A stretch of 64,000 nt of DNA from a bacterium. Its GTDB lineage: Bacteria > UBA8248. Position numbers and translations under genes: made by a program. The stretch spans positions 1,158,756 through 1,222,755 of the forward strand of contig OZ251456.1 in assembly GCA_965242545.1 (NCBI GenBank), read 5' to 3'. The notes beneath the pieces were generated by a model. The model saw only the letters and a list, made by a program, of their open reading frames with translations, did no database searches and was not told the origin of the DNA. Within the stretch, counting starts at the first letter, position 1; each line of letters begins with the position of its first letter. Of this stretch, positions 5,370 to 8,518 are shown one piece after another.

Positions 5370-5612
5370 TCATCCCCCCACGATGGGCGGGAACACGCAG
5401 AGCTCGGCCCCCTCGGGGATGGGGACGGATTTTTTCGCGTGCCGCCCGTCAAGCAGGATGGTGTAGGCCGTTTCGTGGGGAATGTCGAAGCGATCCAGCA
5501 CGTCGCCCACCGTGGCGCCCTCGGGCATGGCGATTTCCGCCGCGCCGTTCATGTCCTGCTCGGGCGGCATTTTCGCCGCGAAATCGGCGAACAGCATGAC
5601 GCGCAGCTTCAC
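5370..5612 (-). CDS. ThiS/MoaD-family ubiquitin-like sulfur carrier protein (80 aa)
   Basis: GTG start overlaps the larC stop (GTGA). MKLRVMLFADF...PEGATVGDVLDRFDIP...LCVFPPIVGG*, with the C-terminal Gly-Gly. Confidence 0.9.
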   Translation of the reverse strand: MKLRVMLFADFAAKMPPEQDMNGAAEIAMPEGATVGDVLDRFDIPHETAYTILLDGRHAKKSVPIPEGAELCVFPPIVGG

Positions 5613-6856
5613 GCCTCGCCCTCCTGGGCCTCCCGGGCGCGCGCGGCGGCGGCCTCCATCACCCGCTTGAGAGGAATTCCGCCCGCCTCCGCCAGCCGCC
5701 TGCAGTCCTCGTATTCGGGCGCGAGATTCACGACCTCGCCCTCGTAGGTCGCCTTCTTGACGCGCGCGCGGCCCCAGGGGAGCTCGACCTCCACCCATTC
5801 GCGTCCGGCCACCGCCCGCCGCGCCGTCCGCCGGCGAACGCCCAGGGTCGAGGTTTCCCGGAACAGGAACCGGGTGAGCGCCTCCTGCCTCGAGAGCGGC
5901 GCCAGGATGGTGAGCAGCTGGGCGGGCCGCCCCTTCTTGCCCGTGACGGGGATGGAGAAGGCGTCGAGCGCGCCCGCCTTCAGCGCGCCTTCGATGACGT
6001 GGGGAAACAGCTCGGGGCTCATGTCGTCCACGTTGGCCTCGAGGACGGCGATGGTCGCCGCGGGCTTTCCGGCCTCGACGTCGTCGCCGGAGGGATCCGA
6101 TTCCCCCAGAAAGGCGCGGACGACGTTGGGGGCGTCCCCGAAATCCTTGTCGCCCGCCCCATGGCCCACCCGCGCGATCGTCATGTCCGGCATGGGACCG
6201 AAAAATTCCGCGCTCTCGCTCAGGAGCAACGCGCCCGTGGGCGTGAGGACTTCGCCCTCCAGCCCGTTGTCCGAGACGGGGACGCCTTCGAGCAGCTTCG
6301 CCGTCGCGGGCGCGGGAAGCGGCATCCGTCCGTGGGCGCATTCCACCCACCCGCGCCCCGCCGGAAGCGGAGAGGCCGCCACCCGCTCGACGCCCAGCAG
6401 GTGGAGACCCAGAAAATAGCCCGTGACGTCGATGATGGAGTCGATCGCGCCGACTTCGTGGAAATGCGCCGCCTCGAGGGTCGTGTCGTGGATTCCGGCT
6501 TCCACGACGCCCAGGCGGTGGAACGCGGAGACGGCGCGGCGCTTTGGAATTTCAGGAATATCCGCGCTTTCGATCATCTCCCGAATGCGCGAGAAGGAGC
6601 GGCCGTGCGGCTTCCCGGCGTCTTGGCCCTCGCGGTCCGCGCCGCGCCGGGGCGTTTCTTCGCGGACGTTCACGCTGAATTTTCGCGCCGAGACGCCCCC
6701 CTTCACGACGGACGCGACCGAGAGCGAATAGCCCTCCAGCCCCAGTTTCGCCAGTTCGGCCTCGAGCGCCGCGAAATCGAGGCCCGCGTCGAGCAGGGCG
6801 CCCAGGAGCATGTCGCCCGCCGCGCCCGCGAAGCAGTCGAACCAGATCGTCTTCAC
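5609..6856 (-). CDS. larC: Nickel-pincer cofactor nickel insertase LarC
   Basis: WFDCFAGAAGDMLLGALLDAG, HFHEVGAIDSIIDV, LTPTGA, LEANVDDMSPE, PEYEDCRRLA motifs. GTG start overlaps the larB stop. Confidence 0.93.
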   Translation of the reverse strand: MKTIWFDCFAGAAGDMLLGALLDAGLDFAALEAELAKLGLEGYSLSVASVVKGGVSARKFSVNVREETPRRGADREGQDAGKPHGRSFSRIREMIESADIPEIPKRRAVSAFHRLGVVEAGIHDTTLEAAHFHEVGAIDSIIDVTGYFLGLHLLGVERVAASPLPAGRGWVECAHGRMPLPAPATAKLLEGVPVSDNGLEGEVLTPTGALLLSESAEFFGPMPDMTIARVGHGAGDKDFGDAPNVVRAFLGESDPSGDDVEAGKPAATIAVLEANVDDMSPELFPHVIEGALKAGALDAFSIPVTGKKGRPAQLLTILAPLSRQEALTRFLFRETSTLGVRRRTARRAVAGREWVEVELPWGRARVKKATYEGEVVNLAPEYEDCRRLAEAGGIPLKRVMEAAAARAREAQEGEA

Positions 6857-7611
6857 GCGCCGGCCGCCCCCTTGTTGATGAGGTGCGCCTGGCATCCCGC
6901 GCCGAAGCCGTTGTCGATGTTCACCACGCTGAGGCCGGAGGCGCACGAGTTCAGCATGGCGAACAGCGCCGTCAGCCCGCCCAGGCTGGCGCCGTAGCCC
7001 ACCGAGGTGGGCGCGGCGATGACGGGACGCGCCACCAGCCCGGCGACCACCGAGGGAAGCGCGCCCTCCATGCCCGCCACGGCGACGACGGCGTTGGCGC
7101 GGCGCAGGGTCTCGACCTCCGCCAGCAGGCGGTGCAGGCCCGCCACGCCCGCGTCGTAGACGCGCGTCACCCCGGAGCCGAGGGCGCGCGCGGTTACCGC
7201 CGCCTCCTCGGCCACGGGAAGGTCCGAAGTGCCCGCGCAGACGATGGCGACCTCGCCGACGGGCTTGGGAGGGTTCTTCGGAGGGATTTCGACGATGCGC
7301 GCCGTTTCGTGATGCCGCGCGCGGGGAGAAAGTTCGAGCAGGGCGGCGGCCTGCTCCGCGCTGGCGCGCGTGACCAGCGCCGTCTGATCCCGCGCCGCCA
7401 GGCTCCCGGCGATTTCGACGACCTGCCGCGCGGTTTTTCCGGCGCCGAAGATGACTTCGGGAAACCCGTTTCTCAGGGCGCGGTGGTGATCCACCCGCGC
7501 GTGGCCCAAATCCTCGAACGGCAGGTCCCGAAGCCGCCCGGCGGCGGCCTCCGGGGCGAGCCTGCCCGCCTTCACCCGCTCCAGGAGATCGAGGAGGGCG
7601 TCGGGGTTCAC
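6853..7611 (-). CDS. larB: Nickel-pincer cofactor carboxylase/hydrolase LarB
   Basis: ARVDHHRALRNGFPEVIFGAGKT, CAGTSDLPVAEEA, DAGVAGLHRL, AGMEGALPSV, PTSVGYGAS, MLNSCASG, VVNIDNGFGA. Confidence 0.95.
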   Translation of the reverse strand: MNPDALLDLLERVKAGRLAPEAAAGRLRDLPFEDLGHARVDHHRALRNGFPEVIFGAGKTARQVVEIAGSLAARDQTALVTRASAEQAAALLELSPRARHHETARIVEIPPKNPPKPVGEVAIVCAGTSDLPVAEEAAVTARALGSGVTRVYDAGVAGLHRLLAEVETLRRANAVVAVAGMEGALPSVVAGLVARPVIAAPTSVGYGASLGGLTALFAMLNSCASGLSVVNIDNGFGAGCQAHLINKGAAGA

Positions 7612-8456
7612 GGGAGGAGGGGCAGATCGGAGGCGCGCGCGGCTTCGAGGACTTCGTTCATGCTGCCCGAGCGGAAGCCTTCCAGATCGATGGTCACGTA
7701 GGTGAAGCCGGCCTCCTTGACGCCGGCGATCACCCGCCGGGAAACGTCCTCCTCGACGAAGCGCGGCACTTCCTCTTTCGGCGCCTCGATTCTGGCGACC
7801 GCGCCGTGGTGGCGCACCCTCAGCTGCCGGAAGCCCAGCCCCCGCAGGAGGCTTTCCGCCTTTTCGACCTGGGCGATTTTCTCCGGCGTGATGCGGTCTC
7901 CGTAGGGAAAGCGGCTCGACAGGCAGGCCTGCGCCGGCTTGTCCCAGGTGGGGAGGCCGAAGGCTTTGGAGAGGGCGCGAATGTCCGCCTTCGTCATGCT
8001 CGCCTCCATGAGCGGGCTTCTCACGCCCAGCTCCCGCGCCGCCCGCATTCCGGGGCGGTGATCGCCGACGTCATCGGCGTTCGAGCCGTCCGCGACGACG
8101 GCCATCCCCTCCTCGGCGGCCACGCGGCGCAGTATCGAATAGAGCTCGTTCTTGCAGAAGTAGCAGCGGTTCGGCGGGTTGTTGCCAAAGGATTCGTCCG
8201 CGATTTCGTCGGTATCCACGATGCGGTGGCGGATGCCGATTCGCGCGGCGAGGGCGATGGATTCCTCGAGTTCGGAGGCGGCGAGGGTGACGGAGCGGCC
8301 CGTGACGGCGATCGCCCGATCTCCCAGCGCGCGATGCGCCGCCTCGGAGAGAAAGGCGCTGTCCACCCCCGCCGAGAACGCGACGAGGACGCTCCCCATC
8401 TCCCTTAAAATGCGCTCGAGGCTTTTCAGTTTGGCGTCCAGCTTCGGGTCGCTCAA
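7608..8456 (-). CDS. larE: Nickel-pincer cofactor sulfur transferase LarE (PP-loop; [4Fe-4S]-type Cys pattern)
   Basis: AFSAGVDS PP-loop, RCYFCK, DGSNADDVGDHRPG, WDKPAQACLSSRFPYG, GFRQLRVRHHG, DLEGFRSGSMN. Start set at TTG 8456 (GGAG 7 nt upstream); the track start is 8480. Confidence 0.93.
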   Translation of the reverse strand: MSDPKLDAKLKSLERILREMGSVLVAFSAGVDSAFLSEAAHRALGDRAIAVTGRSVTLAASELEESIALAARIGIRHRIVDTDEIADESFGNNPPNRCYFCKNELYSILRRVAAEEGMAVVADGSNADDVGDHRPGMRAARELGVRSPLMEASMTKADIRALSKAFGLPTWDKPAQACLSSRFPYGDRITPEKIAQVEKAESLLRGLGFRQLRVRHHGAVARIEAPKEEVPRFVEEDVSRRVIAGVKEAGFTYVTIDLEGFRSGSMNEVLEAARASDLPLLP

Positions 8457-8488
8457 GACGAATCTCCGCTTCGTGGACAACTCGCCGC

Positions 8489-8518
8489 ATTCTAGCCCGT
8501 CCCGCCGCCCGAAGGCAA
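8489..8518 (-). promoter_or_regulatory. Putative sigma70 promoter of the lar operon
   Basis: Minus strand TTGCCT-N18-TAGAAT. Confidence 0.45.

Follow-up and report, generated by a model that had tools for sequence, protein, structure and literature searches.

A 64,000-nucleotide stretch of a bacterial genome (contig OZ251456.1 of assembly GCA_965242545.1, positions 1,158,756 to 1,222,755; hereafter the window) contains an ordinary nickel-pincer nucleotide (NPN) biosynthesis operon, larE-larB-larC, plus a translationally coupled last gene that encodes a small carrier-like protein of the MoaD/SAMP1 branch. We found that this four-gene unit is conserved across the phylum, and that the lar genes and the carrier gene also persist without each other in some genomes. 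Given this two-way decoupling, and given that the relatives of the carrier belong to other cofactor contexts, the carrier cannot be dedicated to LarE; it is at most a donor that LarE shares with another pathway. The reading that we favour, and hold tentatively, is that the carrier has several clients: made together with LarC, it can feed the iron-sulfur cluster of LarE, and it also serves another client, probably tungsten-cofactor/AOR maturation.

The lar operon and its last gene

The operon has the following features, listed in the direction of transcription.

8489..8518, minus strand: promoter-like site upstream of larE (TTGCCT, 18-nucleotide spacer, TAGAAT; pattern match only)
7608..8456, minus strand: larE, PP-loop sulfur insertase (TIGR00268, 339.9 bits against a cut-off of 150)
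6853..7611, minus strand: larB, nicotinic acid adenine dinucleotide (NaAD) carboxylase/hydrolase (NF033503, 287.9 bits against a cut-off of 175; PF00731)
5609..6856, minus strand: larC, CTP-dependent nickel insertase with fused LarC1 and LarC2 parts (PF01969, 439 bits)
5620..5625, minus strand: Shine-Dalgarno-like AGGAGG within the 3' end of larC, 7 nucleotides before the GTG of the carrier gene (direct reading)
5370..5612, minus strand: 80-amino-acid beta-grasp carrier-like protein, MoaD/SAMP1 branch of the ThiS/MoaD family (PF02597, 31.7 bits against a cut-off of 22.5)

The chain of 4-nucleotide start/stop overlaps that a sequence-only reading of the window had described is borne out, within the limits that it gave. 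All three junctions read GTGA (7611-7608, 6856-6853 and 5612-5609), the GTG start codons of larB, larC and the carrier gene overlapping the stop codons of larE, larB and larC, respectively. LarC is also above the NCBIfam cut-offs for both of its parts (TIGR00299, 191.1 bits against 90; NF052512, 140.7 against 50). The start of larE is probably the TTG at 8456, which has a GGAG 7 nucleotides upstream and gives a protein of 282 amino acids, as in the LarE of relatives; the open frame continues to a TTG at 8480 (290-amino-acid translation). The promoter-like site at 8518-8489 was the only one found in a consensus scan in which shuffled sequences predict 0.1.

The carrier gene is a real gene, conserved as an 80-amino-acid protein with a confident fold. 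Homologs in metagenome genomes labelled Nitrospinota are 49-98% identical over all 80 amino acids, and the gene stood behind larC in all seven cases that were looked up. In addition to its PF02597 match, the protein has the beta-grasp fold of the ThiS/MoaD family in its AlphaFold model (pLDDT, the predicted local distance difference test, 93.6) and the C-terminal Gly-Gly of that family, the sequence ending ...FPPIVGG with the stop codon exactly after Gly-Gly. The closest Foldseek matches of the model are SAMP1, the mycobacterial MoaD2, the Pyrococcus furiosus protein 1vjk and Escherichia coli MoaD, with TtuB ranked 17th and ThiS 40th. A profile search of the PDB also gave 1vjk as its top match (46.9 bits).

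The PP-loop motif of LarE is SAGVDS, of the SGGxDS type. A LarE of the [4Fe-4S] type is recognised by a CxxC pair plus a third cysteine in an ...ACLSSR... segment, a motif defined in PMC9283937. Since the three cysteines (C106, C109 and C186 in the 290-amino-acid numbering) are invariant in nine LarE sequences from the phylum, and since the CxxC pair is replaced in the aligned sacrificial enzyme of L. plantarum (5udq), we assign this LarE by its sequence to the three-cysteine [4Fe-4S] type described for Thermotoga maritima. The two proteins share the PP-loop, the CxxC pair and the third cysteine. They differ in genomic setting: in T. maritima the desulfurase genes are far from larE and no adjoining carrier gene is described (PMC9283937), whereas here the carrier is encoded by the last gene of the operon.

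Conservation and decoupling within the phylum

We surveyed 51 species genomes of the phylum, which is small and labelled Nitrospinota. In 38 of them, representing 11 genera and four families, a distance of 2-3 kb on one contig separates larE from the carrier gene. The overlap between larC and the carrier gene is 4 nucleotides in the window's family and 11 nucleotides in a distant family, and the carrier of the most distant family is about 30-35% identical to that of the window. The flanks vary: TonB/ExbB/ExbD/TPR genes and hisC/HU surround the unit in two families and are absent around it in two others and in locus L014, the lar-carrier unit staying together in at least two different flanking contexts. 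In genome G008 the lar-linked copy is retained although an AOR operon there encodes a paralog of the same subfamily. The absences in three further genomes (G016, G011 and G050) are not losses but assembly gaps, with the neighbouring TonB gene missing or at a contig end; G050 has LarA. We also considered a partnership of the carrier with the convergent MaoC-like gene and rejected it, as the carrier has no MaoC neighbour in L009, L010, L014 and the distant families.

Some lar-linked carriers of distant families have residues past the Gly-Gly. Their ends are GGAKG, GGIAV, GGRKPA, GGNGYSFSIT and one longer tail (L022:5760-6011, L026:7989-8240, L028:7012-7266, L023:7974-8303 and L027:7935-8333). 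Judged by these ends, such proteins would need proteolytic trimming before activation, for example by a JAMM protease.

The decoupling goes in both directions. Six genomes of genera g5 and g8 have the carrier and lack LarE, LarC and LarA; g5 includes a 98%-complete single-contig genome, and g8 is represented by four genomes of about 2.1 Mb. In all six the carrier ortholog has kept its syntenic position: hisC lies on one side and the MaoC/TonB/ExbBD/TPR block on the other, and the three lar genes are cleanly absent. The lar-less carriers of g8 are under strong purifying selection, at least as constrained as those of lar-bearing pairs: their pairwise ratios of nonsynonymous to synonymous substitution (dN/dS) are 0.07-0.11 at dS 0.7-2.0, compared with 0.12-0.49 in lar-bearing pairs. 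The lar-less genomes retain all three canonical carriers, so the lar-linked protein is not a replacement for a lost one. As the carrier is kept in these six genomes, which have none of the three Lar proteins, a second client is required.

Conversely, in both genomes of genus g14 the TonB gene comes immediately after larE-larB-larC; there is no carrier, and ThiS-family genes number only three. The g14 LarE retains the three cysteines, and from this carrier-less operon it follows that LarE does not need the carrier. The mutual dependence of a TtuA/TtuB-like pair is thus not found: the carrier occurs alone in six genomes and larEBC alone in two.

The sequence-only reading had noted that larA is absent from the window. 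This holds for the entire 3.09-Mb genome, a complete single contig (PF09861, no match). Elsewhere in the phylum, 25 of the 51 genomes have a LarA homolog, including 20 of the 23 of the window's genus, and many lar-bearing genomes, distant families included, have none.

Sulfur carriers in the genome and relatives of the lar-linked protein

A search for a MoeB/ThiF activator of the carrier returned exactly one E1 in the genome, a rhodanese-MoeB fusion (NF006444, 538 bits). Pfam recognises four ThiS-family genes, the lar-linked one being the fourth, and the other three have classical partners: ThiS with thiG/thiE, MoaD with moaE, and a CysO-like protein with a JAMM protease and a CysM-like enzyme. 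We therefore rejected the lar-linked gene as the ThiS, MoaD or CysO of this genome. The carrier had no match to the moaD equivalog TIGR01682 in the NCBIfam search, and the moaE-adjoining gene fills the MoaD role. By reading of the open reading frames (ORFs), the CysO-like protein ends ...AGGL and MoaD ends ...SGGLA (C1:1649712-1649990 and 1912793-1913035), so that these two proteins, too, would have residues past the Gly-Gly; the JAMM gene adjoins the gene of the former. A fifth beta-grasp gene, missed by the Pfam ThiS search, encodes a Gly-Gly-ended protein of 108 amino acids (...LLMGQYMGG; C1:3041445-3041771, minus strand) directly downstream of AOR copy 2. This pair of AOR and 108-amino-acid-type genes recurs in G023, G039, G042, G012 and G009.

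We considered that the carrier might act as a TtuB for a TtuA encoded elsewhere and rejected this: no TtuA or TtcA was seen among the PP-loop proteins of the genome, judged by sequence reading rather than by family search, and these proteins resemble ThiI, QueC, TilS, MnmA, NadE and a DndC-like protein. One PP-loop protein of 423 amino acids (C1:2414719-2415990) has YSGGKDS and a CxxC near its C-terminus and appears, from the same reading, to resemble a DndC/PAPS-reductase-type sulfurtransferase.

Outside the phylum, 80 metagenomic relatives of the carrier subfamily were collected. An AOR gene is on the contig in 23 of the 80, often with E1, MoeA and MoaA, in a list that leans towards AOR-like proteins because the scan was seeded with three intermediate AOR-like members. 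MoaE is adjacent or fused in three, and 26 are on contigs too short or uninformative for classing. In 27 of the 80, selD lies directly upstream, 18 of these also having a TusA-DsrE fusion. The selD-linked relatives score 78-90 bits, end in IFPPVAGG and follow directly on selD (TIGR00476, 378 bits), often together with the TusA-DsrE fusion and a universal-stress-like gene (metagenome contigs L160:4858-6240, L204:3948-6240 and L197:3917-6240). We have seen no description of a selD-linked MoaD-type carrier.

We also surveyed 80 LarE loci from species genomes, 75 of them from other phyla. Near larE in these phyla, 73 short Gly-Gly-ended ORFs were considered as unrecognised carriers, and all are junk ORFs. 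In 4 of the 75 loci a gene for a ThiF-family E1 enzyme is found no more than two genes from larE. In one from Chloroflexota (L040:6192-10873), a cysteine-synthase-like gene, a ThiS-ThiF fusion, a pyridoxal phosphate (PLP) enzyme, a JAB protease and LarE are encoded in one direction, which places a sulfur module of the CysO/CysM/Mec type directly upstream of an Fe-S-type LarE. In two Clostridia loci (L067:3396-6319 and L083:9992-12682), larE adjoins a NifU-N/IscU-like gene and a ThiF-family E1 of 480-490 amino acids, with an N-terminal extension of about 230 amino acids that has no Pfam match; in the fourth locus a short ThiF-family gene abuts larE. These loci hint that E1-activated sulfur chemistry and Fe-S LarE may have met more than once, in arrangements unlike the window operon. 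The E1-activated logic is that of the CysO-CysM-Mec+ (JAMM)-MoeZ system of Mycobacterium tuberculosis, and systems of this kind are found elsewhere in the window's genome and directly upstream of the Chloroflexota larE. The lar-linked carrier is a different paralog.

Possible clients of the carrier

In the several-client reading, the C-terminal Gly-Gly of the carrier would most likely be adenylated and thiocarboxylated by the genome's only E1, the rhodanese-MoeB fusion. In lar-bearing cells the carrier, made together with LarC, would deliver sulfide to the LarE [4Fe-4S] cluster at its free iron, in the manner of TtuB and TtuA, and its second client would most likely be the sulfur supply for the AOR tungsten cofactor. 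The model for the first step is the TtuA/TtuB system of Thermus thermophilus (PDB 5gha), which likewise has a PP-loop ATPase with a [4Fe-4S] cluster on three cysteines, a Gly-Gly beta-grasp carrier and a shared E1. The mechanism of Fe-S LarE was compared with that of TtuA by its discoverers, and the sulfur source that they tested was the heterologous IscS of E. coli (PMC9283937). By the same analogy, the open iron site of the LarE cluster could take sulfur from a thiocarboxylate. In its most specific form, the proposal is that one MoaD-type thiocarboxylate is the physiological donor of the phylum's [4Fe-4S] LarE and also feeds AOR tungsten-cofactor maturation, which we regard as possible, with more doubt than assurance. 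The E1, JAMM and CysO genes beside larE in other phyla, together with an operon in G008, hint at a triad of AOR, carrier and Lar proteins. The G008 operon (L210:2460-6068; C8:101959-105567) has overlapping genes for AOR, a 105-amino-acid Gly-Gly-ended beta-grasp protein (...NIAGG plus TRG) and a LarA homolog. This LarA-linked carrier is of the ordinary AOR-adjacent type, outside the lar-linked subfamily; in this operon AOR, a carrier and an NPN enzyme come together a second time, independently.

Several observations weigh against a role of the carrier at LarE, in addition to the carrier-less lar operons of g14. The fold of the carrier is nearer to MoaD and SAMP1 than to TtuB or ThiS and, unlike in TtuA/TtuB, LarE and the carrier each occur alone in related genomes. 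Contact between carrier and LarE, or transfer of sulfur between them, is something that we infer by analogy with the Thermus pair. Because the four genes overlap, they could also stay together through inertia alone. Finally, conservation of the carrier beside lar genes, which the sequence-only reading had expected, holds within the phylum and ends there: no separate ThiS/MoaD-type gene was found within 3 kb of a lar or E1 gene in the 75 loci from other phyla, by homology search and a screen for Gly-Gly-ended ORFs, and genuine lar genes are beside none of the 80 metagenomic relatives.

Nearly as likely as the several-client reading is that the carrier works for another pathway alone, most probably the provision of sulfur for the AOR tungsten cofactor, and that it came to stand behind larC by historical chance and has stayed there through overlap and co-transcription. 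A profile of the lar-linked carriers scores two AOR-operon proteins (G008b, 85 bits, and P0039, 60 bits) far above the canonical carriers (MoaD 24-31 bits, ThiS 11-23 bits, CysO-like proteins 17-21 bits). A grouping of the carrier with molybdenum-cofactor, thiamine or AOR-type systems had been named in advance as evidence against a lar function, and it is seen in part: the affinity is to the AOR-operon carriers, MoaD, ThiS and CysO reaching 31 bits at most. The lar-linked carrier of G009 is likewise nearer to the AOR-linked proteins (46-49% identity) than to the window carrier (42%), and the AOR genes beside 23 of the metagenomic relatives, often with those for E1, MoeA and MoaA, point the same way. 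AOR-linked MoaD genes are a set described in 2006 and predicted to function in tungsten-cofactor synthesis (Iyer, Burroughs and Aravind, PMC1779556), and they include the closest sequence relatives of the window carrier, whose presence and absence follow those of AOR. Of the 51 genomes of the phylum, 49 encode AOR; the exceptions coincide exactly with the g14 pair, which has lar but not the carrier, and AOR and the carrier are both retained in the six lar-less genomes. This co-loss is, however, a single event, confined to a genus whose genome is reduced, and it is suggestive only, with little statistical weight.

Other evidence speaks against such an accident of position. Adjacency to AOR, the criterion of the described set, is not seen for the carrier of the window's genome, which is incorporated in the lar operon instead; no AOR is near the carrier in the lar loci of the phylum. 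The three AOR copies of the window's genome lie at 1.576, 1.828 and 3.042 Mb of C1 and the carrier at 1.164 Mb, the nearest AOR being about 0.4 Mb away. AOR copy 2 is already accompanied by a Gly-Gly protein, the adjacent one of 108 amino acids, and the lar-carrier unit survives changes of the flanking genes. The function of the AOR-linked carriers is, moreover, itself a prediction.

It is unlikely that the small protein is no sulfur carrier at all and acts as a ubiquitin-like modifier (SAMP-like conjugation) or as an adaptor or chaperone for LarC or another protein. SAMP1 of Haloferax volcanii, a sulfur carrier that also modifies proteins, is among the best structural matches of the carrier, as P. 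furiosus 1vjk is among the structural and PDB sequence matches, and the Gly-Gly of some relatives is followed by a further 3-10 residues, a form reminiscent of unprocessed precursors. SAMP1 is also the top NCBIfam match of the carrier, a bacterial protein, at 25.6 bits, far under the cut-off of 60. Against a modifier or adaptor role, no E2- or E3-like conjugation genes were seen nearby, though no search was aimed at them. The exposed Gly-Gly end and the sole MoeB-type E1, fused to rhodanese, point to sulfur chemistry, and the neighbours of the relatives are all sulfur or selenium cofactor genes (AOR, MoeA, MoaA, SelD and TusA-DsrE).

The original proposal, that the carrier opens a third, TtuA/TtuB-like route for NPN sulfur as a dedicated LarE donor, now appears very improbable: its supports stand, namely the translationally coupled operon kept across the phylum, the Fe-S type of LarE, the separate roles of the other carriers and the single E1, yet dedication itself fails on the six genomes that lack LarE, LarC and LarA, in which strong purifying selection maintains the ortholog, on the g14 lar genes without a carrier, and on the absence of the pairing from the 75 LarE loci of other phyla and the 80 subfamily relatives. 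The probability that remains belongs to readings other than these four.

In the literature that we searched, no ThiS/MoaD carrier is described as a partner of LarE. The comparative data indicate that lar does not require this carrier, that the carrier is not lar-specific, and that AOR/tungsten-cofactor maturation is relevant too. They define an uncharacterised carrier subfamily whose genes follow larC, belong to AOR operons or adjoin selD. For the widespread Fe-S LarE, only a heterologous cysteine desulfurase has so far been shown to be a working sulfur donor, and the operon described here offers a clonable candidate donor. If the shared-donor proposal is true, one small protein would couple the sulfur supply of two metallocofactors, the nickel-pincer nucleotide and tungstopterin.

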